DNA of 43,399 bases, taken from Candidatus Aenigmatarchaeota archaeon (GTDB taxonomy: Archaea; Aenigmatarchaeota; Aenigmatarchaeia; Aenigmatarchaeales; DAIDAN01). Below are positions 4,418 through 40,005 of the stretch, in pieces (positions within the stretch are counted from its first letter, which is position 1; each line of letters begins with the position of its first letter). The notes beneath the pieces are model-generated. The model made no database searches and was not told the DNA's origin. It saw nothing but the letters and a program-made list of their open reading frames with translations. The stretch covers positions 1 to 43,399 of the forward strand of contig JAVHRC010000073.1 of NCBI GenBank assembly GCA_036171435.1, read 5' to 3'. The position numbers were made by a program, and so were the translations under genes.

Positions 4418-4891
4418 ATGATTCAGGTCTCGCCAGTGCGAAGGTTGGAAGGGCGCATAAGGCAGCTTGAACAGGCATCCGCTTATTCCGGATTGCCGCA
4501 ACTTCAGGGTTTGATAACGCAGATAATCGAGCTTGTGAAAGGCAACCAGAAAATAGTTGACGAGGTTATAAAAGCAAACTCGGAGCTAAGAAACGAGCTT
4601 GGCAGACTGCCCTCCAAAATAGACGAACTCATATTTCAGATGAAAAGCTTCATGAACATTATCAGGATGGCAGGCGAAGAAAGCTCGGTTTCAATCCCTC
4701 CCGAGATGATGAATCCTGTGACGGATCAGCTCCAAAAAATATCAGACCAGAACATTAAGGTATTGGAGAGCAACCAGGAAGTGATAGGCTCGCTGGAAGA
4801 GCTGAACAAAAAAATCAAGTCGGGAACGCCGGTGTCGCAACTGCTTTCAGCATATCCGAGAATCAACATAAGAAGTCTGCAAAAGCAATAA
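4418..4891 (+). CDS. Hypothetical coiled-coil protein heading the pilus locus
   Basis: 157-aa ORF with heptad-like Leu/Ile/Glu/Gln-rich sequence. It has the same orientation as the pilin and ATPase genes and lies immediately upstream of them. Confidence 0.45.
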   Translation: MIQVSPVRRLEGRIRQLEQASAYSGLPQLQGLITQIIELVKGNQKIVDEVIKANSELRNELGRLPSKIDELIFQMKSFMNIIRMAGEESSVSIPPEMMNPVTDQLQKISDQNIKVLESNQEVIGSLEELNKKIKSGTPVSQLLSAYPRINIRSLQKQ

Positions 4892-4946
4892 ATGCCGCAT
4901 GCAATTGAAATGTACTAAATCACATTTTCTTTAATATGGGGATTAA

Positions 4947-5369
4947 ATGAAAGGAGTATCAACCATCATAGCCGTTATTTTGCTTCTGATGATAACCGTT
5001 GCGCTAATGTCATTATTCTGGGGTTTCTCCACGGGAATGTTTGGCTCCATCACAGCCGGAGTGGGCAGGCAGACGGATATGGCCATAACAAGGGCAGGCA
5101 CAGCATTTACCATAATCAACGCAAGAAACACTTCTCTTACAAGCATAGATGTTACAATCAGAAACGATGGAACACAGAATATGGACTTAGGCACTCTTGT
5201 CGCATTTGTTGACGATAACAAAGCTTCCGAAACAGCTTCCGCCACGCTTTTTCCCGGCGGCAGCGCAAATTTTACAGTTGTCTCGCCGGTTTCAATGTCA
5301 AAATGCAACCACGTGCTCAGGCTTTCTGTTGCTTATGCGTCTGACATATATTACACAATAAAATGTTGA
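4947..5369 (+). CDS. Archaeal type IV pilin-like protein (class III signal peptide)
   Basis: The N-terminus MKG/VSTIIAVILLLMITVALM is the KG-(V/Q) prepilin peptidase site plus hydrophobic helix typical of the archaeal pilin N-terminal domain. Confidence 0.7.
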   Translation: MKGVSTIIAVILLLMITVALMSLFWGFSTGMFGSITAGVGRQTDMAITRAGTAFTIINARNTSLTSIDVTIRNDGTQNMDLGTLVAFVDDNKASETASATLFPGGSANFTVVSPVSMSKCNHVLRLSVAYASDIYYTIKC

Positions 5370-5486
5370 CGGTTAGAATCTAATTCACATTTATTGATAT
5401 GTTCTGGAACCACTGTATCAAATAACCAAAATAAGGCAGATAATTTAAAAGAAAAGTTAATAACACAGCAATGCCATTATTAACCT

Positions 5487-5909
5487 ATGAAGGGACAATA
5501 CATAACTCTTGAAAACATGTTCTTTTTTGCAGTTGGAATTGCCATGGTAATTGCGATATATGCGGTTTTTTCCAACATATCCGACAGCGTGCGCTCCGCA
5601 GCCCTGCAAGACCAGCTGGAAAAGGAAGGGGAAAACATCCGTTCTGGAATAGTAAAAACTTTCATGGCAGGCAATTCCACAAATTCTACCATAACTCTTT
5701 CCATGGAAATTCCCAGACAATTATCAGGCTGCAACTATAAGATAACCGCGGATGCGAAAAGCCTTTATATGAACTGCGCGGATGAATCAATAAGTTCAAA
5801 CGCCATAAATTTATATGGAATTGAAACAAGAATTAAGAACGGCGCTGCGTATGGCAGCTCGGGAAAAATAGATATTTTCTACTCGGGCGGAAATGTTCTA
5901 ATAAGCTGA
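5487..5909 (+). CDS. Type IV pilin-like protein (class III signal peptide)
   Basis: The N-terminus MKG/QYITLENMFFFAVGIAMVIAIYAVF has a KGQ cleavage-type motif followed by a hydrophobic helix. Confidence 0.6.
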   Translation: MKGQYITLENMFFFAVGIAMVIAIYAVFSNISDSVRSAALQDQLEKEGENIRSGIVKTFMAGNSTNSTITLSMEIPRQLSGCNYKITADAKSLYMNCADESISSNAINLYGIETRIKNGAAYGSSGKIDIFYSGGNVLIS

Positions 5910-5919
5910 AGGTGATTGA

Positions 5920-7704
5920 TTGAAAGATATGAAAATAACGCTTAAAAGAAAAGAGAATAAAATAAGCCTTTCAAAGGTTTTCAGAAAAGCCGTGAAGGGA
6001 TATAAAATCATGTCCGCGGCAACAGCGGGCAAAGTCTCCGAATCCGGCGCCATGATGCCTGAGAATTTCTTGGAATTGTTGGCCAAAATGGGGTTTGGGT
6101 CGCAAAAATCAGAAAGCGAAAAAAAGGAACAGATAAAAGGCATTGAAATAACCGCGGCAGAAGAGATTAAAATAGCGGGGAAAAAAATCCATGAGGAAGA
6201 GGAAAAAAGGATGAGCATGACTTATCCGCTTATTCCGAAACACCCTTCCGCCAGCCAGAAGATATTCTCTTCCGCCAACATATTGTGGTCGGCAAAAGAA
6301 TCGTCCCTTGTCTATATTGTGTCGGAACCAAAACTGAACGACCAGGAAAAATTTCTTCTGGACAAGATAAAAAATTCGATCATAGAAAAATTTGACGTGG
6401 ACTTCACCAAGCTCAGGAAAGGCGAGGCGCACGCCTACCTTAGGAAAGGGTTTGAGGAAATCATCAGGCTTATGGCAAGCACCTTCCCGCTGGAAAGACA
6501 GCATGATATCCTGTATTTTGTGGAAAGGGATTTTATAGGGCTTGGCAAAATCGAGCCTCTTATGCAGGACCCGAACATCGAGGATATAAGCTGCGACGGC
6601 ATCCAGATACCCATATTCATTTATCACAGAAACCCGACCATTGGCACGCTTCGCACAAACATATTCTTTGAAAGCGCGGACGAGCTTGATTCGTTCACAA
6701 ACAAGCTTGCACAGCGCTGCGGAAAAACAATCTCGGTAGCCGCGCCTTTGGTGGACGCATCGCTCCCCGACGGCTCAAGAATACAGCTGACGCTGGGAAC
6801 GGACATAGCAAAACGCGGCAGCAATTTCACAATAAGAAAATTCACGGAAGAGCCGCTGTCCCCGATACATATGCTGAAGTTCGGGACTGCAGACCTGAAA
6901 ATACTCGCATATCTTTGGATGCTCACGGAATATGGAAAATCAACGCTTGTGGGTGGAGGCACGGCCACGGGAAAAACCACTCTTCTTAACGCGCTCTCGC
7001 TCTTCATCAAACCCGACCTGAAGATTGTCACTATAGAGGACACTTCCGAATTGAGGCTCCCGCACTCGCATTGGGTTCCGCAGGTTGCAAGGCAGCCCAT
7101 GGCAGAGGTCGGCGGCAGGAAGCTTGGAGAAGTTGACATGTTTGATTTGCTGAGGGAATCACTGAGGCAAAGACCTGATTTCATAATAGTGGGAGAAGTA
7201 AGAGGCAAGGAGGCTTACGTGCTTTTCCAGCAGATCGCGACAGGCCACCCCGGACTTGCAACCATACACGCGGACACAATTGAAAAGCTTGTGGACAGGC
7301 TGACCACTCCGCCAATAGAGCTGCCGCCCAGCCTTATAGAAAACCTTGACATCATAGTGTTTCTTGTAAGAATAAAATACGGCAACAAATACGTGAGAAG
7401 AATCTCGTCCATTCTCGAAGTCACGGGCTTTGACAGGAAGACTGACTCACCGCTGACAAACGAGGTTTTCAGGTGGAATCCTGTCGGAGACAAGTATGAT
7501 ACCGTGAACCCGAGCATTATACTGAGAAAGATATCCAACGCCTCGGGCGCAAGCGAAACTTCCATTCAGAAGGATATTGGCAAAAGGATAAAAATACTGA
7601 AATGGCTTTCAGATAAGAATTTCTCGGACTACAGGATATTCGCAAACGTCATGAAAATGTTTTACACGCAGCAGAACAGGCTTGATGAAATCATGGAAAG
7701 GTGA
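5920..7704 (+). CDS. Type IV pilus / archaellum-type assembly ATPase (FlaI/PilB/VirB11 superfamily)
   Basis: Walker A GGGTATGKTTLLNAL, Walker B DFIIVGEVRGKEA and His box GHPGLATIHAD. The ORF-track start is TTG at 5920 with GGTGA upstream; an alternative ATG is at 5929. Confidence 0.9.
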   Translation: MKDMKITLKRKENKISLSKVFRKAVKGYKIMSAATAGKVSESGAMMPENFLELLAKMGFGSQKSESEKKEQIKGIEITAAEEIKIAGKKIHEEEEKRMSMTYPLIPKHPSASQKIFSSANILWSAKESSLVYIVSEPKLNDQEKFLLDKIKNSIIEKFDVDFTKLRKGEAHAYLRKGFEEIIRLMASTFPLERQHDILYFVERDFIGLGKIEPLMQDPNIEDISCDGIQIPIFIYHRNPTIGTLRTNIFFESADELDSFTNKLAQRCGKTISVAAPLVDASLPDGSRIQLTLGTDIAKRGSNFTIRKFTEEPLSPIHMLKFGTADLKILAYLWMLTEYGKSTLVGGGTATGKTTLLNALSLFIKPDLKIVTIEDTSELRLPHSHWVPQVARQPMAEVGGRKLGEVDMFDLLRESLRQRPDFIIVGEVRGKEAYVLFQQIATGHPGLATIHADTIEKLVDRLTTPPIELPPSLIENLDIIVFLVRIKYGNKYVRRISSILEVTGFDRKTDSPLTNEVFRWNPVGDKYDTVNPSIILRKISNASGASETSIQKDIGKRIKILKWLSDKNFSDYRIFANVMKMFYTQQNRLDEIMER

Positions 7705-8585
7705 CGAATTTGTGGGACTCTTTAAAAAATGCCGCATTCAAGTTGTTTGGAAAATCTTTGGAGCCTTACATAGACTACTTCAGCAGCATCAAGCCCGACC
7801 TTGAGATGTCAAACATATCTCTGAGTCTTGCAGAATACGTTTATGTCATAATATTTGTGCCTTTTATCATTTTTGCGGCAGAGTTTCCGCTCCTTGCGCT
7901 TATCCTCAGCATACTGACGCACAATATGATTGTATCGTTTTTTCTTTCATTCACTTTGACAATTTTCATTTCATTGCTGGTATTTTTCATATTCTACTCA
8001 TACCCTTCCATGATTTCATCCGGAAGGAAAAAAAACATTGACGGAGCGCTTCCTTTTGCAACAACATACCTGGCTACGGTGGCGGGAAGCAGGGCGCCGC
8101 CTTTGACCATGTTTAAAGTGCTTTCGCAATTCAAGGAATACGGGGAAATAGCAAATGAAGCCAAGAAAATATACAGGGATGTTTCTGTGTTCGGCATGGA
8201 CTTGACGGCAGCCATAAGAAAAACCGCGTCAAGGACGCCGTCCATGCAGCTGAAGGAGCTGCTTTGGGGAATGACAAACGTCATGACAACGGGCAGCGAT
8301 ATGCCGACATTCCTCAGGGAAAAGTCAAGGGCTTTTATGCAGGAATACAGAAGAAAACTTGATGAATTCTCGCAAAAGCTGTCAACGATTATAGAAATTT
8401 ATCTTACGGTTCTGATAGTTGGCTCCATATTTTTCGTAATATTAAGCTCCATAATGTCACTTTTCAGCAGCGATATGAGCCTTACGCTTTCGTTCGCGCA
8501 GTTCGTTGTAATTTTTCTGGTGATGCCTGCGGTATCGGTCGGCTTTATAATGCTGTTAAAATCAATCTCGCCTTCAATGACATGA
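7701..8585 (+). CDS. Pilus platform membrane protein, single T2SS-F (FlaJ/TadB/TadC-like) domain
   Basis: Overlaps the ATPase stop by 4 nt. It is polytopic, with a cytoplasmic helical segment (PFATTYLATVAGSRAPPLTMFKVL...EYGEIANEAKKIYRDVSVFGMDLTAAIRK) typical of GspF/FlaJ repeats. Confidence 0.8.
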   Translation: MTNLWDSLKNAAFKLFGKSLEPYIDYFSSIKPDLEMSNISLSLAEYVYVIIFVPFIIFAAEFPLLALILSILTHNMIVSFFLSFTLTIFISLLVFFIFYSYPSMISSGRKKNIDGALPFATTYLATVAGSRAPPLTMFKVLSQFKEYGEIANEAKKIYRDVSVFGMDLTAAIRKTASRTPSMQLKELLWGMTNVMTTGSDMPTFLREKSRAFMQEYRRKLDEFSQKLSTIIEIYLTVLIVGSIFFVILSSIMSLFSSDMSLTLSFAQFVVIFLVMPAVSVGFIMLLKSISPSMT

Positions 8586-8645
8586 TATTAACAATAAAAT
8601 GGCAATAATGTAAGCAATATTGTATGCGAAATAAAAGGTAATTTT

Positions 8646-9614
8646 ATGAAAGAGTCTTCAGATAAAAGCAAGAAAGGGTTTTTTTCAAACCCCATGCATA
8701 TTACCCTGGTCATCGGAGGAATCTTTCTTCTGGTTGGGATTGTATTTTTTGGAAATGACGTCGGCTTGCTTGGAAATTTCGTCATAATATCAATGCTTAT
8801 CGGTTTCATGCCCTTCGTAATGGTTGCATACTTCAAACATGAAAGAATCAAGGCCGTGGAAGAACAGCTGCCTATCTTTTTGAGGGATTTAGCCGAGTCG
8901 CAGAAGGCTGGAACAAACCTGCCTGACGCGCTTAGATTCGCGACAAAAACCGATTACGGAAAGCTGTCAAACGAGATTAAAAAATTAAGCGACCAGCTTT
9001 CGTGGGGAATACCGCTGCAGGAAGTGCTCAACAGGTTTTCTGAAAGAATGAAGGGGTCTGAAATAATCACCAGGTCAATAAGAATAATCAATGAAGCCTA
9101 CAGCAGCGGCGGCGACATAGCCGACACAATGGAATCCATAGCAATAGACGTGAACATAATAAGGGAATCACAGAAGGAAAGAGCCAGCAGCATGACGCAG
9201 CACATAACCATAATGTACATAATTTATTTTGTGTTCATTTCCATAGTCATATCGCTTTCCAACACGCTTTTCCCGATGATGCAAATGAATTTCGGGACAG
9301 GCGGTTTTCTGGGCGTTTCAGGCGGGACGGGCGGGTTTACCAATCCCTGCGACGTCTGCACAGGCGGGAATTTAATGTGCGTTTCCTGTTCAACGTTCTC
9401 GGTGCTTTCCTTGATATTTTCCTTTGGCACGGGAGCCACAAGCTATTACAGGTCGCTCTTCTTTTCAATGATAATAATACAAGGAATTTTCAGCGGGCTG
9501 ATTGCGGGACAGATAAGCACAAACTCCGCAATAGGCGGGCTAAAGCACAGCCTGATACTAACGGCAGCCGGCTTTGGAATATTCATGATAGCATTCAGGC
9601 TTGGAATGGCCTAA
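8646..9614 (+). CDS. Second pilus platform membrane protein, single T2SS-F domain with a Gly/Cys-rich loop
   Basis: Carries a GspF-like cytoplasmic segment (LPIFLRDLAESQKAGTNLPDALRFA...WGIPLQEVLNRFSERM) and multiple TM helices. An unusual insert GTGGFLGVSGGTGGFTNPCDVCTGGNLMCVSC is present. Confidence 0.8.
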   Translation: MKESSDKSKKGFFSNPMHITLVIGGIFLLVGIVFFGNDVGLLGNFVIISMLIGFMPFVMVAYFKHERIKAVEEQLPIFLRDLAESQKAGTNLPDALRFATKTDYGKLSNEIKKLSDQLSWGIPLQEVLNRFSERMKGSEIITRSIRIINEAYSSGGDIADTMESIAIDVNIIRESQKERASSMTQHITIMYIIYFVFISIVISLSNTLFPMMQMNFGTGGFLGVSGGTGGFTNPCDVCTGGNLMCVSCSTFSVLSLIFSFGTGATSYYRSLFFSMIIIQGIFSGLIAGQISTNSAIGGLKHSLILTAAGFGIFMIAFRLGMA

Positions 9615-10055: not shown

Positions 10056-10201
10056 GGGTCTATAGTCTATCGGTAGGATGCTACCCTCACACGGTAGAGA
10101 GCCTGGTTCAATAAGCCCTTTTCTTTTTAATCCGAAAGTGCAAAAGAAAAGCGCTTGCGGAAAAGAAAATAAAGAAACTGAGATTCCGGGTAGACCCACC
10201 A
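10056..10201 (+). tRNA. tRNA-Val (anticodon CAC) with a 72-nt intron in the T-loop (59/60); CCA encoded
   Basis: Hand-folded. Acceptor GGGTCTA/TAGACCC, discriminator A. Anticodon arm CTACC-CTCACAC-GGTAG. T-stem CCTGG (10102-10106) / CCGGG (10186-10190). Spliced T-loop TTCAATT. Confidence 0.85.
10113..10184 (+). other. tRNA intron at 59/60 (hBH motif); diverged member of the shared intron family
   Basis: The T-stem forms the outer helix. The central 4-bp helix is TTCA (10107-10110) with TGAG (10179-10182). The 3-nt bulges are AT|A and AT|T. The core hairpin GCCCTTTTCTTTT/AAAAGAAAAGCGC and the purine-rich tail are homologous to 37068..37132 and 38531..38590. Confidence 0.75.
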
Positions 10202-10238
10202 TTAAACCATTTTCTGGCGGAAAGACAACTGATAATTG

Positions 10239-11042
10239 CTATTCGCTCTTTCCCGCATACGCCTCGCTAAACACAAGAAGCCCTTCCGCATCGCGCAGGT
10301 AAAGCGTGTCCCCGTTGTTGTTCCAGATTGCTTTTTTGCTGCACCAGAACAATTCCGCGCCCGCATTATTGCCGCATCCTGAGCGGATTTTTACGCTTTG
10401 GTTTGGCTCAATAAAAAGATTTCCGAACTTGTAAATCTTTGTCCCGGAATTTTTCACGGTCCAGCCAGCCATGTTTATTGTCATGCTGCAATTGTTTTTT
10501 AGATAAACAAACTCGTCGTTCAGGTTTTCATTATCATTGCCAAGCGCATCCCAATGAAACTCGGGGACGGAGATGCAATCAATATAATTTTCATCCGTTC
10601 TCCATAAACCGATATTACTTTCCCTTGCATATACCTCGGCTTTTTCAAGCTCCGCGGAATATTTTCCGTTCGGGGGAATGATGTAAACATTCGCAAACCC
10701 GTTTCTTATTATTTTTTCGTTTACAAATTCTCCGCCTATGAAGACATACCTGAGATGCCTCCCGTATTTGTCCATCTCTACAATATCCTTCTCCAATGTG
10801 ACATTCTTCCCGCCAATGAGGTTTTTCAAAAAAGTCGAGGCGTTATCATACAGCGGCTGCTTTTTTTCAGGCGTATTTATCCCGAGTATGCGCACAACAC
10901 CTCCGCCTTCAATCTCGAATGTGTCGCCGTCTATCACTCTTGCCACGAAAGCCGTCTCCGTGGAGGGTTTTGCAACCGCCTGTTGAATAAAAAATACGGA
11001 CACGGTAATCAAGATAGCAACGGCAAACGCAAGTTTGTTCAT
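10239..11042 (-). CDS. Secreted thermonuclease (SNase-like) fused to a lamin-tail-like (LTD) domain
   Basis: Signal peptide MNKLAFAVAILITVSVFFIQQAVA. SNase motifs VIDGDTFEI...RILGINTPE...DKYGRHLRYVF. The C-terminal segment FVYLKNN...MAGWTVKNSG...IRSGCG resembles LTD. Confidence 0.85.
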   Translation of the reverse strand: MNKLAFAVAILITVSVFFIQQAVAKPSTETAFVARVIDGDTFEIEGGGVVRILGINTPEKKQPLYDNASTFLKNLIGGKNVTLEKDIVEMDKYGRHLRYVFIGGEFVNEKIIRNGFANVYIIPPNGKYSAELEKAEVYARESNIGLWRTDENYIDCISVPEFHWDALGNDNENLNDEFVYLKNNCSMTINMAGWTVKNSGTKIYKFGNLFIEPNQSVKIRSGCGNNAGAELFWCSKKAIWNNNGDTLYLRDAEGLLVFSEAYAGKSE

Positions 11043-14588: not shown

Positions 14589-15236
14589 TCACGGCTTGAA
14601 GAACGTCACGGAGAAATATCTGACCTTGTTTTCATCGTCAACGACAGCCCAGAGCATGTTCGCGCGGATGTTGTGCGCAAGGCGGACGGCGCGCGACATT
14701 TCCTGAAATCCGAAAACGAACTTTTTCGGCACAGCAAAAACAATCCATTTCGTGTGCTCGTGCGCCTGCTTCTGCCCGCGCTTCAGCGGCTTGACGCCGC
14801 GGTTGTATACGCGGAAATCGCAGCCGAACTTGAATCCGGTTCTTGTCGGCAAACCGCGCTCTCGCAAGTCCTTGTAGACAATGTATCTTTCCCAAAACCG
14901 CGGGTCAATCTCGGAGCAATATTTGTAAAATTCGCCGGATGCAATATTTTTTCCATTATCCAACAATTCAATTTTATTTTTCTCAAGCAAAAGCGCAGCC
15001 TCTATCAGCGCAAGTTCTAACCTATCCTCCTTCAGCTTCCCGTAAAAGTCATTCTCGAAAATATCTTTCGCTTCCTCCCTGTCCCAGACAAAAACCTTGT
15101 CTTCCGCGAGCCGCGCCTCTATCTTCTTTTGCGATTTTTGTTCTTCTTTTTGAAGTTCTGGAAGACGCACTTCCTCTTTCCTCTCTTTTTTCTGCTTGTT
15201 TTTCTTGGGCATAATCATCACATTATTTATTTTCAC
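14589..15236 (-). CDS. endA: tRNA-splicing endonuclease, catalytic-type (alpha-like) subunit with a Lys/Glu-rich N-terminal extension
   Basis: YKDLRERGLPTRTGFKFGCDFRVY...AHEHTKWIVF...AVRLAHNIR matches the EndA C-terminal catalytic domain, including the Tyr (FRVY) and His (EHTKW). The start is uncertain: GTG at 15236 overlaps the upstream stop, and ATGs at 15218/15212 are possible. Confidence 0.85.
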   Translation of the reverse strand: MKINNVMIMPKKNKQKKERKEEVRLPELQKEEQKSQKKIEARLAEDKVFVWDREEAKDIFENDFYGKLKEDRLELALIEAALLLEKNKIELLDNGKNIASGEFYKYCSEIDPRFWERYIVYKDLRERGLPTRTGFKFGCDFRVYNRGVKPLKRGQKQAHEHTKWIVFAVPKKFVFGFQEMSRAVRLAHNIRANMLWAVVDDENKVRYFSVTFFKP

Positions 15237-15754
15237 GGCTGGAGCTCGTTCAGAATATAATACGTGCAGTCCGAATCGTTGTCAACAATCGCCCATAACG
15301 CTATCGTCCTGATGTTCTGCGCGAGTTTTGTGGCGCGCTCGAGCAAATCAAGGCCGCAGGGATAGTCCTCGCCCGCAACGAAAACAATCCATTTCACGTT
15401 CTCGGCTTTTTCCGGCTTCGCGCCGCGCTCGTAAACGCGGAAGTCGCTTCCCTTGAAGCCTATCCGGACCGGCAGACCGCGCTCGCGCAGGTCCTTGTAA
15501 ACCGCGTAAAGCGATGCAAACCTCTTGTTCCTTGAGCAGAAATGGTAGAAATCCGCGAACTTCATTTTCTTTCCATCAAGAATTATGTCAAGCCTTCCGC
15601 GCTCCTGCAGAAGCAGTGCCTCCGCGAAACCAAGCTCAAGTTTCTCGTCTTTCAGATTTCCATACCAGCCCGAATCGAAAATATCCTTTGCCGCTGAAGC
15701 GTCCTCCACAACCACTTTATCATCAATCACTTTTCCTTCCGCCATTTTTATCAC
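15233..15754 (-). CDS. tRNA-splicing endonuclease paralog, structural-type (beta-like) subunit
   Basis: Same fold signature (YKDLRERGLPVRIGFKGSDFRVYERGAKP...VKWIVF...ATKLAQNIR), but the His-containing insert of the neighbouring paralog is absent. It is translationally coupled to 14589..15236. Confidence 0.8.
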   Translation of the reverse strand: MIKMAEGKVIDDKVVVEDASAAKDIFDSGWYGNLKDEKLELGFAEALLLQERGRLDIILDGKKMKFADFYHFCSRNKRFASLYAVYKDLRERGLPVRIGFKGSDFRVYERGAKPEKAENVKWIVFVAGEDYPCGLDLLERATKLAQNIRTIALWAIVDNDSDCTYYILNELQP

Positions 15755-36547: not shown

Positions 36548-36874
36548 TTAGAACATACTTGCCGGTGATGTTGGCTGCTCCATTGCAGGCTCCTCGGGCA
36601 TGCTTGGCGTTGAGAAGTGCTTTATTATTACCACGTCTCCGACGCTGTCAACATACTGGTAAGGTACTACCACTCCTTTCTTTCCCCCGACCATATTGGC
36701 GAGGAACGAGCCTTTCGCAGACTCAATCACAAGCGAGCGAACGCGGAATTTTGCCAGGTTTATGTCCATGTCTATAATCTTGCCGCAGTATGCGCCCCTG
36801 TTTGTAAATACGTCCTTGCCGAACATCTCAGAAAGATCCTTGACTGTTACTCCCATAAAATCACCTTTTAACAA
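36548..36874 (-). CDS. PRC-barrel domain protein
   Basis: VFTNRGAYCGKIIDMDINLAKFRVRSLVIE...VVPYQYVDSVGDVVII is a typical archaeal PRC-barrel sequence. Confidence 0.7.
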   Translation of the reverse strand: MLKGDFMGVTVKDLSEMFGKDVFTNRGAYCGKIIDMDINLAKFRVRSLVIESAKGSFLANMVGGKKGVVVPYQYVDSVGDVVIIKHFSTPSMPEEPAMEQPTSPASMF

Positions 36875-37067
36875 AAATTATTTTTGATTATTAATTACCT
36901 ATCTATTGGACAAATATGTATATAAAGTTAAGCGGCTGCTTTCAAGTGGCAACTTTTCGCAAGAAATTAAAGCATTAAATAGGTTTCAACCAAAATAAAA
37001 CTTACGCTGAGGTAGCCAAGCGGTACGGCGCTAGCCTGCTAAGCTAGTTCCCGCAAGGGATCGTGGG

Positions 37068-37132
37068 AGGCCTTTTTCTTTACAAAAGAAAAACGCCTGC
37101 GAAAAAGAAAGAATAAGAAAAAGGTCCGCGAA
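37068..37132 (+). other. tRNA-Ser intron 1 at 53/54 (HBh' motif); member of the shared intron family
   Basis: The central helix is CGTG (37062-37065) with CGCG (37127-37130). The 5' bulge is GG|A. The 9-bp inner helix is GGCCTTTTT (37069-37077) with AAAAAGGTC (37118-37126). The 3' cut falls 2 nt after the helix (AA|T), which puts TTCGAAA at the start of the next exon. Confidence 0.7.
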
Positions 37133-37138
37133 TTCGAA

Positions 37139-37225
37139 ATTGGGATAGGGAAAGAAATTTCCTTTGGTTGATGCTCTTCAAGAGGAAGAGGTTACCCAAA
37201 GGGGAAACCTTAGGTTTCCCCTGGT
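37139..37225 (+). other. tRNA-Ser second T-arm insertion (putative intron 2, boundaries approximate)
   Basis: It must be removed to join TTCGAA (37133-37138) to T60 plus CCCAT. The insert is highly structured, with helices 37149-37153/37158-37162, 37163-37167/37196-37200, 37174-37179/37185-37190 and 37201-37209/37213-37221. I could not find a complete BHB by hand. Confidence 0.45.
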
Positions 37226-37261
37226 TCCCATCCTCAGCGCCAATAATTTTAAAGTGGTTTC

Positions 37262-37579
37262 ATGAAGGTTGTCTATGTTTGCTGCCCGAAAAACTTTGAG
37301 GCAATGGAAACTTTGTCAAGGGCTATGGGGCTTGATACGCTTCCGCTCGTCCCGCATTTCGTGTTTTCCGGATTTGAGCAGAAGTTCGGGAAGAAATACG
37401 CGGACATGTGCAGGCTGAATCTGATGGAGAAATGCGAGGAGATTTGGGTACTTACCTCATACAGCTCGCAGGAAATGAAGGAGGATTTGGAGCACGCGAA
37501 GAAAAACAACATTCCCGTCGTGAACAAGTGGCAGGAAATCATAAGACAGGAGGAGGAGAAATTGAAACTGAAACTGTAA
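37262..37579 (+). CDS. Hypothetical protein (possibly DUF4406 / nucleoside-deoxyribosyltransferase-like fold)
   Basis: 105-aa ORF between two tRNA genes. The segment CEEIWVLTSYSSQEMKEDLEHAKKNNIPVV loosely resembles the C-terminal block of DUF4406/DUF1937 proteins. Confidence 0.45.
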   Translation: MKVVYVCCPKNFEAMETLSRAMGLDTLPLVPHFVFSGFEQKFGKKYADMCRLNLMEKCEEIWVLTSYSSQEMKEDLEHAKKNNIPVVNKWQEIIRQEEEKLKLKL

Positions 37580-37591
37580 AACTATTAAAAC

Positions 37592-37706
37592 GGGCCGGTG
37601 GTCTAGTTCGGTTATGACGCCAAGTCAATACGCATGAATTTTTATGCGTGGACGCGGACCCCTTACAAGGTGGATACCGCAAGTTCAAATCTTGCCCGGC
37701 CCACCA
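37592..37706 (+). tRNA. tRNA-Val (anticodon UAC) with a 37-nt intron at 29/30; CCA encoded
   Basis: Hand-folded. Acceptor GGGCCGG/CCGGCCC, discriminator A. Intact T-arm GCAAG-TTCAAAT-CTTGC. The anticodon arm CCA|CC-CTTACAA-GGTGG forms only after removing 37623-37659. Confidence 0.85.
37623..37659 (+). other. tRNA intron at non-canonical position 29/30
   Basis: BHB-like fold. The inner helix is GTC (37624-37626) with GAC (37651-37653). The 5' bulge is CA|A. The central helix is CGC (37618-37620) with GCG (37654-37656) plus an A-G mismatch. The 3' bulge is AC|C. An internal hairpin ACGCAT/ATGCGT is also present. Confidence 0.7.
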
Positions 37707-37710
37707 AATT

Positions 37711-38400
37711 TTATTTTTTACTTAACTGTTTACTGCCAAGAAGTACAGCTATAAAAATCGAAGTGAATATACCTGTTGCATAATAAGGGTCTATATTGAA
37801 TCTCATAATCATACTTAGAGAGATGTATAAAATCTCGAAAATAGCTGCAAGGAATAAAGAATATCCCCAAATCTTCACCCCTCCAAAGAACTCTATCATT
37901 TCTCTAAAGATTTTAATATTCTTATATATTCTGTCAAATATTTCCTTAAAAATTATCAGTGTAATACTTCCTAGAAAAAACGGAATAAAAAATCCCATCA
38001 AAATAAAATAATTAAAACCATCCGGGTTATTCAGATTAATATTAGCTTGAATATGTAGATAAGGAAAAATTATCGAAAGTATAACAATTCCTACTGGCCC
38101 CGCAAGCACAATAAAAAAAGCCGGGTTGAAAGTATCTACTAAACCACTAAACCTTTTCTCATGTCCAACTGGTATGTATACATTGAATGTTCTTGGCTTA
38201 ATTAATATTTGGTTATTTTCCATATTGTTCAGAACTTTTCTAAGCTTTTTTTCATCTACTTCATGATTCTTTTGAGTTTCATTCAAAATTGCTTTAAATG
38301 AAAAATCTTCAGGACTAAACTGTTCTGATTGAGCCTTCTTCCTAAGCAACTCTACAAGAAATTCTTCTAAATGTGAATCTGAGATGTATTGCTTTTCCAT
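37711..38400 (-). CDS. Hypothetical membrane protein with a soluble N-terminal domain
   Basis: 229-aa ORF with a ~95-aa hydrophilic N-terminus followed by about 4 TM helices. The coding sequence is conspicuously AT-rich and is wedged between tRNA-Val(UAC) and tRNA-Ala. Confidence 0.5.
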   Translation of the reverse strand: MEKQYISDSHLEEFLVELLRKKAQSEQFSPEDFSFKAILNETQKNHEVDEKKLRKVLNNMENNQILIKPRTFNVYIPVGHEKRFSGLVDTFNPAFFIVLAGPVGIVILSIIFPYLHIQANINLNNPDGFNYFILMGFFIPFFLGSITLIIFKEIFDRIYKNIKIFREMIEFFGGVKIWGYSLFLAAIFEILYISLSMIMRFNIDPYYATGIFTSIFIAVLLGSKQLSKK

Positions 38401-38484
38401 ATTTTTTAATGATTATCTGTGTATTTATATTCTTTGCAGGAAAACTAATATTTGACTTGAAATATGGGCTGGTAGATCAACGGA

Positions 38485-38497
38485 AAACGATCGTTAA
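38485..38497 (+). other. 13-nt mini-intron in the D-loop of tRNA-Ala (hBH motif)
   Basis: The D-stem GATC (38475-38478) / GATC (38499-38502) is the outer helix. The central helix is AACG (38479-38482) with CGTT (38492-38495). The bulges are GA|A and AA|A. The spliced D-loop is AACGGAA. Confidence 0.55.
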
Positions 38498-38530
38498 AGA
38501 TCGCCACCTTGGCATGGTGGAGGTTCCGAG

Positions 38531-38590
38531 AGGCCTTTTTCTTTTCAAAAGAAAAACGCCTGCGAAAAAGAAAGAATAAAGGCTCGGGAG
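38531..38590 (+). other. tRNA-Ala intron at 53/54 (HBh' motif); member of the shared intron family
   Basis: The central helix is TCCG (38525-38528) with CGGG (38585-38588). The 5' bulge is AG|A. The inner helix is GGCCTTT (38532-38538) with AAAGGCT (38578-38584). The 3' cut is AG|T. The first 49 nt match 37068-37116 with one substitution. Confidence 0.7.
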
Positions 38591-38596
38591 TTCGAA

Positions 38597-38684
38597 AATG
38601 CACGAGAGAAAAACGCAAGTTCAACGGAACGGGGGTATCAGGAAAACCCTTGAACTGAAGGGGGCGGAGCCCCCTGCGGTTCGG
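38597..38684 (+). other. tRNA-Ala second T-arm insertion (putative intron, boundaries approximate)
   Basis: It lies between TTCGAA (38591-38596) and T60 plus CTCGG. The structured helices are 38603-38607/38685-38689, 38614-38616/38676-38678, 38618-38624/38650-38656 and 38660-38665/38669-38674. No complete BHB was found by hand. Confidence 0.45.
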
Positions 38685-38745
38685 TCTCGGCCAGTCCACC
38701 ACTTCTTCAAAAGCTATTTAAAACATAAAACAAAATCTTGATTCT

Positions 38746-40005
38746 ATGTCCGACTTTATTGAGGTTAATGCGGATTTGCATTTGCACGGGCTTTATTCTG
38801 CGGCTGTGAGCAGCGAGATGGTGCCGAGAAAAATCGGCGAGCAGGCGCCGCTGAAAGGGCTGCACCTCGTCGGAACCGGCGACATTCTGAACGAGAGATG
38901 GATAAGACTTTTGAAAGAGCAGCTGAAACCTTTGAACGACTCGATGTTCGAGCATGAGAACGGGACAAAATTCGTTTTGCAGACGGAAATTGAAGACAAC
39001 AATCGCGTCCACCATATAATATTGTTTCCGAGCCTGAGCAAGGTTTATGAAGTGCGCGAGAAGATGAAAAAATCCTGCAAAAACCTTGACTCCGACGGCC
39101 GCCCGAAGATATGGCTCAACGGGGAGGATATAGCCGAAATCTGCCTGGAAGCAGGCTGCCTTCTCGGCCCTTCCCATATGTTCACCCCTTATTTCGGAAT
39201 TTATTCAAAATACAACTCCTACAAGGACTGTTACGGAAAATATTGGGATAAAATTTATTTCGGCGAACTCGGCCTTTCAGCAGACACTGACATGGCTGAC
39301 AGGATTGAGGAGTTGCGTGGATTGACTTTCCTGAGCAACAGCGACTGCCACAGCCCTTGGCCAAACAAGCTCGGAAGGGAATTCACAAGATTTCTTATGA
39401 AGGATATTTCCTTTGATGAGCTGGAAAAAGCAATAAAGCGCGAGGACGGAAGAAAACCGATTCTTAATATTAAATTCGACCCGCGAGAGGGAAAATACCA
39501 CAAGACGCGCTGCACAGGCTGTTTGCTTTTTTTCAAGCCAGAAGAAGCAATACAGTTAAAATGGCGCTGCCCGGTTTGCAAGAAGACAATAAAAAAAGGC
39601 GTTGACTTCAGAATTTATGAATTGTCCCACGGCGCCGAAACCTCTCACCCGGAGCACAGGGCAAAAACGGTTCATATAATTCCGCTCTCGGAGATAATCG
39701 CCGTTGCGCTCGGAATAAAACAGTCGTGGTCTTTGAAAGTGCAGGAACAGTGGAAACTTTTTGCCAGCAAATTCGGAAACGAAATAACAGCGCTTGTTGA
39801 TACACCTATTGAAAAATTGGCCGAAGTTGACAAAAAAACAGCAGAGCTTGTCAAGGCTTTCAGAAAGAGCGAGTTCAATTATGTTCCTGGCGGCGCGGGC
39901 GTTTACGGTATTCCCGTTCCTCCCGGAAAGAAAGCTGAAACAAAATATTATGAGCAGTCGCAAAGAGCGGAGCAGAAAAGCCTTGGGGATTTCAAGAAAC
40001 AATAA
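38746..40005 (+). CDS. Endonuclease Q-like protein (PHP-domain phosphoesterase with zinc ribbon, COG1379)
   Basis: N-terminal ADLHLHGLYSAAVS (PHP metal site). The CHSPW block and the CTGC...CPVC zinc ribbon are in the position seen in EndoQ. The 419-aa size fits. Confidence 0.8.
   Translation: MSDFIEVNADLHLHGLYSAAVSSEMVPRKIGEQAPLKGLHLVGTGDILNERWIRLLKEQLKPLNDSMFEHENGTKFVLQTEIEDNNRVHHIILFPSLSKVYEVREKMKKSCKNLDSDGRPKIWLNGEDIAEICLEAGCLLGPSHMFTPYFGIYSKYNSYKDCYGKYWDKIYFGELGLSADTDMADRIEELRGLTFLSNSDCHSPWPNKLGREFTRFLMKDISFDELEKAIKREDGRKPILNIKFDPREGKYHKTRCTGCLLFFKPEEAIQLKWRCPVCKKTIKKGVDFRIYELSHGAETSHPEHRAKTVHIIPLSEIIAVALGIKQSWSLKVQEQWKLFASKFGNEITALVDTPIEKLAEVDKKTAELVKAFRKSEFNYVPGGAGVYGIPVPPGKKAETKYYEQSQRAEQKSLGDFKKQ

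Follow-up and report, generated by a model that had tools for sequence, protein, structure and literature searches.

How does nearly the same sequence come to lie within the introns of unrelated tRNA genes, and at different positions in the tRNA? The question is raised by a 43,399-nucleotide stretch of DNA from a Candidatus Aenigmatarchaeota archaeon (contig JAVHRC010000073.1 of assembly GCA_036171435.1), here called the window and analysed over its whole length, in which tRNA-Ser, tRNA-Ala and tRNA-Val genes carry introns that begin with a shared, structured element. The gain of tRNA and rRNA introns in archaea has been an open question since transposed tRNA intron families were reported from the Thermoproteales (Fujishima et al. 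2010, as cited in PMC4090602). In PMC4090602 the mechanism is still called unknown and is thought to act at the DNA level, and non-canonical, multiple and transposed introns are treated as already known. Judging from the aligned copies, the conserved unit here is a module of 40-50 nt and not the entire intron, the 3' adaptors that follow it being specific to each locus. We favor, at a probability of roughly 0.6, an explanation in which this module is a structured unit, independent of the splice motif, that is gained, lost and exchanged at the DNA level under RNA-level selection and that serves as the front end of bulge-helix-bulge (BHB) introns.

The element was recognized as a repeat. A pattern search of the window, allowing up to 3 mismatches, finds a 49-mer exactly twice, at 37068-37116 and 38531-38579 (0 in 100 shuffles), and a repeat finder extends the pair by the preceding G to 50 nt at 98% identity (37067-37116 and 38530-38579). 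These two copies, one in tRNA-Ser and one in tRNA-Ala, lie 1,463 bp apart and differ at one base, as a sequence-only reading of the locus had reported. That reading also placed a third, diverged copy in tRNA-Val(CAC), which is real and has the same layout but starts at 10113 and not at 10115. The Val copy (10113-10169) has a 28-nt block in common with the others at 89% identity and retains the 5' arm, the inner arm, the GCG linker and the purine tail, with a 13-nt insert in the loop at 10129-10141.

The host genes are not visible to standard tools in their unspliced form: ARAGORN calls no tRNA in the raw window (0 of 4 genes), and Rfam 15 gives partial tRNA matches over the Val and (weakly, at 37006-37084) the Ser exons only, with no family matching the module. 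The introns were delimited with the BHB rule, which demands a central helix of 4 bp, a pair of 3-nt bulges with the cut in each falling after its second base, and at least one outer helix. The exons of the Ser and Ala genes were set by hand and then verified with ARAGORN on the spliced sequence; an automated multi-intron solver combining the BHB rule with ARAGORN worked for Val and gave spurious solutions for Ser and Ala. Once spliced, tRNA-Ser(gct), tRNA-Ala(ggc), tRNA-Val(cac) and a further tRNA-Val(tac) are all accepted by ARAGORN as canonical cloverleaves with an encoded CCA. The genes and their parts are as follows.

37006-37242, plus strand: tRNA-Ser(GCT) gene interrupted by two introns, its CCA encoded (hand reading; accepted by ARAGORN after splicing, with a long variable arm).
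37068-37132, plus strand: Ser intron 1, 65 nt, at position 53/54, made of module and 3' adaptor (BHB rule).
37068-37110, plus strand: Ser core module, type 2 (hairpin folding and covariation), consisting of 5' arm 37068-37081, loop 37082-37084, inner purine arm 37085-37098 (C72.C94 mismatch), GCG linker 37099-37101 and mirror purine tail 37102-37110, and followed by the common GAATAA extension to 37116.
37117-37132, plus strand: Ser-specific 3' adaptor, GAAAAAGGTC-CGCG-AA, complementary to the module 5' arm and to exon 37062-37065.
38466-38701, plus strand: tRNA-Ala(GGC) gene interrupted by three introns, with a G3.U70 pair and its CCA encoded (ARAGORN after splicing).
About 38485-38497, plus strand: Ala D-loop mini-intron of 13 nt, lacking a module (central helix AACG:CGTT plus the D stem).
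38531-38590, plus strand: Ala intron 2, 60 nt, at position 53/54 (TCCG at 38525-38528 with CGGG at 38585-38588; h' of 7 bp), consisting of module 38531-38573, GAATAA to 38579 and adaptor A-GGCT-CGGG-AG at 38580-38590.
10056-10202, plus strand: tRNA-Val(CAC) gene with one intron (Rfam tRNA match 10056-10119; accepted by ARAGORN once the intron is removed).
10113-10184, plus strand: Val(CAC) intron, 72 nt, at position 59/60, with a type-1 module (BHB-rule search and ARAGORN) consisting of 5' arm 10113-10128, loop insert 10129-10141, inner arm 10142-10156, GCG 10157-10159 and tail 10160-10169.
37592-37706, plus strand: tRNA-Val(TAC), a fourth gene that all finders missed, with one intron (spliced form accepted by ARAGORN).

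By the BHB rule, each of the three copies forms the 5' part of a BHB intron, and the hosts and positions given in the sequence-only reading (Ser and Ala at 53/54, Val at 59/60) are borne out, as is its general claim of one sequence in unrelated tRNAs at different sites. In Ser intron 1 the central helix joins CGTG at 37062-37065 to CGCG at 37127-37130, with bulges GGA and AAT that would be cut after their second bases, and helix h' pairs the pyrimidine arm with the adaptor over 12 bp (37069-37080 with 37115-37126). The Ser adaptor is unlike that of Ala, and the compensatory change in the flanks that had been described is real: CGTG:CGCG with GGCC..:..GGTC in Ser corresponds to TCCG:CGGG with GGCC:GGCT in Ala. 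In Val(CAC) the central helix joins TTCA at 10107-10110 to TGAG, carried by the adaptor at 10179-10182, with bulges ATA and ATT that would be cut in the same way and the 6-bp T stem as outer helix. Ser and Ala thus have the relaxed HBh' form of the motif and Val(CAC) the hBH form. The 5' arm can pair with either the inner arm or the 3' adaptor, a possibility already raised from the letters, and folding supports both forms: the minimum-energy fold of pre-tRNA-Ser in RNAfold is the splice-competent one, and the Ala context keeps the core hairpin. The Val(TAC) intron is 37 nt long (37623-37659) and lies within the 5' strand of the anticodon stem, at about 29/30.

Two more repeated intron families were seen on the 3' side of the T loop, in the window at 37140-37226 and 38598-38685 and also in the contigs L012, L030 and L074, the last of which is syntenic with part of the window. 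One of them, GGGAAAGAAATTTCC...GGTTTCCCCTGG, is the second Ser intron of the window and the third Ala intron of L074; the other, GGGGTATCAGGA...CTGAAGGGGGCGGAGCCCCCTGCGGTTCGG, is the third Ala intron of the window and recurs in L012 and L030. The 5' ends of both pair with the 3' strand of the T stem.

What kind of element is the module itself? Its order is constant: first comes a pyrimidine arm, RRGCCY-TTTTCTTT, then a variable loop, and these are followed by a complementary purine arm that ends in CGCYT, by a GCG turn and by a second purine tract. By itself the core folds into a hairpin of 13 bp in which a C.C mismatch is constant (-11.8 kcal/mol, z -3.1). In an alignment of 23 distinct copies the hairpin is 95% paired and shows double changes in 8 of its 13 pairs, values that none of 500 shuffles reaches. 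The second purine tract, in a relation that the sequence-only reading overlooked, is a mirror image of the first and not a direct repeat of it, which makes it the parallel-register complement of the 5' arm. Across the four variable columns, 5' arm and tail are 92% complementary in that register, compared with 81% after shuffling, with 14 double-change cells against 3.5 in shuffles; in slid registers the figure falls to 45-68%.

The mirror relation extends well beyond one family. A sequence-independent scan for a pyrimidine tract with a Watson-Crick partner and a mirror partner gives 74 matches in about 300 kb, against 0-2 in shuffled sequence, and where the tracts are not symmetric the downstream copy is a mirror tract in 35 cases and a direct repeat in 5. 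At least eight asymmetric tract designs on different stem bases all obey the relation, and the sister families, with stem bases AAGC, AAGG, GAGG, GAGC, GGCC and GGGC and varied C positions, keep the rule as well; a total of 491 kb yielded 109 distinct structure-defined elements. The spacer that separates the two purine tracts is in most cases palindromic (GCTTAAGC, CCTTAAGG or CGCTTAAGCG, and CGCYTGCG in the main family) and can itself fold. The resulting mini-hairpin, CG[CYTG]CG, which competes with the triple-stranded form, has 2 compensatory cells and is also predicted by RNAfold in the splice-competent Ser fold.

A conserved mirror repeat beside a purine/pyrimidine hairpin, with covariation in both hairpin and tail, suggests a triple-stranded fold. 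The triples (T,A,A), seen 147 times, and (C,G,G), seen 36 times, account for 183 of 207 cells. Wobble pairs, counted to see which strand folds, number 7 G.T against 3 A.C in the curated alignment and 39 against 38 in the broad set, and so favor neither strand consistently. A possible triple-stranded fold inferred from mirror covariation has not been described for such elements. The purine motif, which the transcribed strand would form, is listed for RNA in PMC13541005. C/D boxes, H/ACA motifs, K-turns and a bacterial-type terminator (a hairpin followed by a U run) were looked for by eye, and none fits. An archaeal oligo-T terminator is unlikely, since the T-tract occurs within rRNA and tRNA genes and between the cistrons of operon-like clusters.

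Several peculiarities of single copies may be recorded here. A conserved apical insert of about 13 nt, with a consensus near GGYRWYGARCWYG, occurs in the window at 10129-10141 and in L005, L006, L014, L026, L030, L035, L040, L044 and L045; in the window Val copy its complementarity to the GCGCTTGCGG turn allows an alternative fold. The loop of the main module repeatedly harbors a third, nested module family, GCACG-AAAA-hairpin-TTTTCG-GCGGAGCC-AAAAC-hairpin-GTTTT-GTGC, as in the Ser intron of L074 (reverse complement) and in L002, L003, L024, L035, L050-L052 and L063. Three tandem module copies lie within one T-loop intron of L080 (reverse complement, about 9200-9330).

How widely is the module distributed? 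Further copies were sought with a 23-nt signature, GAAAARCGCYTGCGRAAAAGAAA, in contigs representing one genome per species, and with a looser pattern in metagenomes, and the outcome was strongly positive. The signature finds 36 loci, 3 of them bacterial chance matches; the others are labelled Candidatus Aenigmatarchaeota, other DPANN archaea or unclassified archaea, and a single metagenome-assembled genome (MAG) holds as many as 13 loci. The looser pattern gives 45 metagenome loci, almost all from Aenigmarchaeota or other DPANN archaea, and the searched viral contigs hold no copy. Pooled, the scans give about 69 non-redundant copies of the main family. Read from the flanks, the intron hosts comprise at least 12 tRNA species: Ser(GCT), Ala(GGC), Val(CAC), Val(GAC), Arg(GCG), Arg(CCT), Ile(GAT), Leu(GAG), Leu(CAA), Leu(TAA), His(GTG) and Thr(TGT). 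The module stands at the 5' edge of introns in the D loop and at 37/38, 53/54 and 59/60, with up to four introns per gene, and also in introns of 16S and 23S rRNA genes, Rfam confirming hosts of both the small and the large subunit. All well-formed introns have their 5' splice site 1-3 nt ahead of G3 of the module.

Some of the rRNA genes are heavily interrupted. The 23S gene of L078 (637-6804) is stretched to about 6.2 kb, compared with a 2,987-nt model, and the 16S gene of L066 (9300-10000) has at least three module-bearing introns, one of them in the conserved GTGCCAGC/CGCGGTAA primer-binding region; such genes are relevant to amplicon surveys. The tRNA complements of Aenigmarchaeota MAGs are likewise probably under-called, since standard finders miss genes of this kind.

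A second class of copies lies outside introns altogether. About 17 of the 69 non-redundant copies are adjacent to an open reading frame (ORF), the module overlapping the stop codon or beginning a few nucleotides after it; in 15 of these cases the ORF has at least 60 codons and its stop codon, TAA or TAG, is formed by a T and bases 1-2 of the module. Several lie between co-directional genes, with the Shine-Dalgarno sequence of the next gene 10-20 nt after the tail, and in L008/L010 the spacers that separate small co-directional genes are filled one after another by sister-family and main-family modules. In L039 a copy stands immediately after a tRNA 3' end, and in L066 one lies in the spacer about 40 nt past the 16S 3' end. 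None of these copies outside introns has a conserved BHB; a search for a cryptic one at ORF-adjacent copies turned up chance-level candidates only, unconserved between orthologues. Within the window no copy is extragenic, and none follows any of its approximately 45 protein genes. The orientation of the module follows the host gene. On contig L066 modules occur on both strands, each with its own gene, so that orientation is tied to transcription and not to one DNA strand, and an account in terms of replication direction is ruled out. The stop-codon copies link the evolution of introns to the biology of intergenic repeats.

Contig L074 shares synteny with window 36867-39400, with 91% identity over ungapped columns, and nearly all structural differences between the two fall within tRNA introns. 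In L074 a module of another family, about 51 nt long, is nested in the Ser hairpin loop. Its Ala D-loop intron carries a 53-nt AAGG-type sister module where the window has the 13-nt mini-intron with the same adaptor, and in place of the window's third Ala intron it has a member of the family to which the second Ser intron of the window belongs. The Val(TAC) gene of L074 has an unrelated intron at 37/38, that of the window being in the anticodon stem. The Val(CAC) genes of L028 and L030 have a D-loop intron that is absent from the window; in L030 it combines a main-family core with an adaptor that fits the sister-family arm of the L028 orthologue, a pattern that points to a core swap. Mini-introns of 12-13 nt lacking a module were noted in the Ala D loop of the window (38485-38497) and in T loops of L004 and L034, and these may represent the ancestral state that receives modules. 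A segment of about 720 bp in the window (37713-38430), between tRNA-Val(TAC) and tRNA-Ala, is absent in L074; it holds a 229-aa ORF on the minus strand with no Pfam match, and may be an insertion beside the tRNA genes.

If the introns are spliced, which enzyme would remove them? Two adjacent endonuclease genes, overlapping by 4 nt, are present in the window.

14589-15236, minus strand: catalytic alpha-like EndA subunit, 215 aa (Pfam tRNA_int_endo_N and tRNA_int_endo).
15233-15754, minus strand: second EndA paralogue, 173 aa (the same two Pfam domains, tRNA_int_endo_N and tRNA_int_endo).

The best solved relative of the alpha-like protein is the N. equitans alpha subunit 3IEY_A (E 4e-31), and it retains the catalytic-motif His (EHTKW). 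The second protein can be aligned with either half of the fused M. kandleri enzyme 5X89, most closely with the EndA-like first half, and has an Asn (ENVKW) where the catalytic His aligns; it is probably a structural beta subunit. The alpha-like and beta-like pair would imply a heterotetramer-type EndA in an Aenigmarchaeota-like genome. Cleavage of relaxed, non-canonical motifs has been reported for two-subunit endonucleases (PMC5829648), and it is by analogy with that literature that we infer a broad specificity for the window enzyme; the diversity of DPANN endonucleases was already known (PMC5829648).

The anatomy, covariation, splice motifs, distribution, orientation and presence/absence differences described above bear in the following way on the route of insertion, on actual splicing and on any host benefit, all of which are to be understood conditionally. 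A short, locus-specific 3' adaptor of 6-16 nt would turn the module into a spliceable intron: four of its bases would pair with the upstream exon to give the central helix, and in the 53/54 introns its purine run would pair with the pyrimidine arm of the module to give the intron-side helix. The alpha/beta-type EndA (14589-15754) would then excise all three introns of the window. Modules are quickly gained, lost, exchanged and nested; they would enter permissive transcribed sites, namely existing mini-introns and the first few bases past a stop codon, most likely by insertion or recombination at the DNA level rather than by reverse splicing. Selection on the RNA would afterwards retain only sense-oriented, correctly folded copies, and splicing would render the module harmless in tRNA and rRNA genes. 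The module occurs wherever the downstream RNA is expendable. Since the 3' half of a mini-intron would be the essential adaptor, an insertion into it must land beside the 5' splice site, which would explain the constant position of the module. Gain and loss of the module in DNA are favored because the unit is independent of the splice motif, is sense-oriented, and has module-free mini-introns as counterparts. Intron gain becomes separable into a structured module, a 6-16-nt adaptor, element-free mini-introns, and near-identical genomes that differ by single modules.

Several observations weigh against this explanation. The window proteins include no transposase (RAYT, TnpA, DDE) or reverse transcriptase tied to the module, and two filled/empty sites between the window and L074 show no target-site duplication; the idea of a TAA duplication proved inconsistent across copies. 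A selected RNA function would account for the strict sense orientation and the exact overlap with stop codons no less well than selfish spread does, and identity of the 23-mer across MAGs whose flanks are only about 64% identical can mean purifying selection and not recent movement. An adaptor at 53/54 must match both exon and module, which is awkward for simple insertion. One copy (L011) seems to abut an opposite-strand gene only. Finally, the borders of the second Ser and third Ala introns are not fixed by the strict BHB rule, the candidates for their central helices being only 3 bp long or mismatched.

Might whole introns move instead? An excised intron, linear or circular, would re-enter tRNAs at BHB-like sites by reversed cleavage and ligation followed by copying into DNA, or introns would pass between tRNA genes by gene conversion, their adaptors mutating afterwards. 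Sense-only orientation is a prediction of such an RNA-level route, and the Ser and Ala introns share position 53/54, where one C-to-G change would fit the Ser central-helix strand to Ala. At 59/60 the T-loop TTCA/TTCG bases of the central helix are universal, so that one adaptor would fit any tRNA, and the family of the second Ser intron in the window occupies the same T-loop site in the Ala gene of L074. It is difficult to see, however, how whole-intron transfer would place BHB-free copies after stop codons and tRNA 3' ends, add or remove a sister module inside an otherwise conserved intron (the Ala D loop of L074), or swap cores with the old adaptor kept; a filled/empty pair of sites with no difference other than the module has been seen once. 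Moreover, identity ends exactly at the module end, and no reverse transcriptase is found among the window proteins. We therefore regard movement of whole introns as unlikely. A simpler dismissal, that the pair reflects local gene conversion, an assembly artefact or tRNA pseudogenes, could appeal to the 1,463 bp between the Ser and Ala copies and to the failure of ARAGORN and Rfam to call the unspliced genes. Yet dozens of copies occur in independent assemblies and samples, the syntenic L074 carries the same genes and introns, endonuclease genes are present, and splicing yields canonical products in which CCA is encoded and Ala has its G3.U70 identity pair. The many further copies exclude local conversion alone and pseudogenes as a full explanation, and the artefact or pseudogene reading, very improbable, is refuted for practical purposes.

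A host-beneficial RNA cap is a more serious contender, one that we consider possible though doubtful. Here hairpin and mirror tail would form a compact, possibly triple-stranded structure that blocks exonucleases or marks a processing site, sitting at the end of a functional segment (an ORF, a tRNA or a first exon) under purifying selection and spreading slowly. Much of the evidence above is congenial to it: the module always starts 0-3 nt past the upstream functional unit, its orientation follows transcription, copies lie between the cistrons of operon-like clusters, and the covariation is three-way. The signature is identical in divergent MAGs, the Ser intron matches that of L027 at 63 of 65 positions while the flanks align at only about 64%, and copies at orthologous positions are conserved (L007/L015, L019/L033). 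Against this, a cap has no obvious use inside a discarded intron, the window has no copies after its protein genes, and the presence, absence and swapping of modules between 91%-identical genomes indicate that it is dispensable at a given site. All-RNA purine-motif triplexes are, in addition, regarded as weak in vitro. A bolder extension, which we put forward only tentatively, is that the module is a natural intramolecular triple helix and a general "end cap" on the transcribed strand in DPANN archaea, and at the same time a vehicle of intron creation. The pyrimidine arm, the Watson-Crick purine arm, the mini-hairpin turn and the mirror purine third strand would build the triplex, and the cap would be placed after ORFs, tRNAs and first exons; being self-contained, and tolerated wherever downstream RNA is expendable, it could create or enlarge BHB introns. 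If this is true, a repeat family would for the first time carry a purine-motif triplex signature, and archaeal intron gain would have a concrete mechanism.

Other genes of the window can be mentioned briefly. A type IV pilus/archaellum-like cluster at 5920-9614 (plus strand) and 4418-5909 includes a PilB-like ATPase, a pair of T2SSF membrane proteins and, among its small proteins, DUF7266/CARDB members. Adjoining tRNA-Val, at 10239-11042 (minus strand), is the gene for a secreted nuclease of the SNase-lamin-tail type.

How does the gain and loss of a front-end module, the explanation we favor, compare with systems already known? A literature search found no earlier account of the module, of its extra-intronic copies or of the mirror-tract architecture; the coverage of that search was incomplete, and a prior description is possible. 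The closest parallel is with the transposed intron families of the Thermoproteales, in which near-identical intron sequences likewise occur in non-orthologous tRNAs at different positions, and which, according to PMC4090602, also share several introns per gene, BHB-type sites and a broad-specificity two-subunit endonuclease. The intron transposition of this style proposed from the letters alone therefore holds for the sharing of sequence across tRNAs and positions, but the repeated unit is a 5' module and the lineage is DPANN (Aenigmarchaeota). Unlike those families, moreover, the module has a hairpin and mirror-tract architecture and is found also in rRNA introns and, outside introns, at stop codons. 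rRNA genes with BHB introns are known from Thermoproteales 16S (PMC4496867), and closely related genomes that differ in the number and position of introns, with tRNA introns gained at the population level, from Caldiarchaeum subterraneum (PMC3293823), but the elements described there are a 1.8-kb recombinase-bearing element or homing-endonuclease introns, whereas the units here are 40-90 nt, non-coding and modular.

[quoted passage not shown] It differs from them in lacking both a linked transposase and terminal inverted repeats accompanied by target duplication, so far as the window proteins and the two filled/empty sites reveal, and in being strictly transcript-oriented, in lying inside spliced tRNA and rRNA genes, and in possessing the extra mirror purine tract. 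That tract recalls the mirror repeats of H-DNA (PMC11667243) and the RNA triplexes of ENE/MALAT1 (PMC13541005), which also combine a homopurine/homopyrimidine duplex with a mirror third tract. The triples form isomorphous sets, (T,A,A) and (C,G,G), like those of triplex formers, and the location at RNA ends is reminiscent of 3'-end-protecting triple helices. In ENE-type structures two U-rich tracts clamp one A-rich tract, whereas the transcribed strand of the module has one U-rich and two A-rich tracts, as in the purine motif; the U.A-U arrangement would exist only on the antisense strand.

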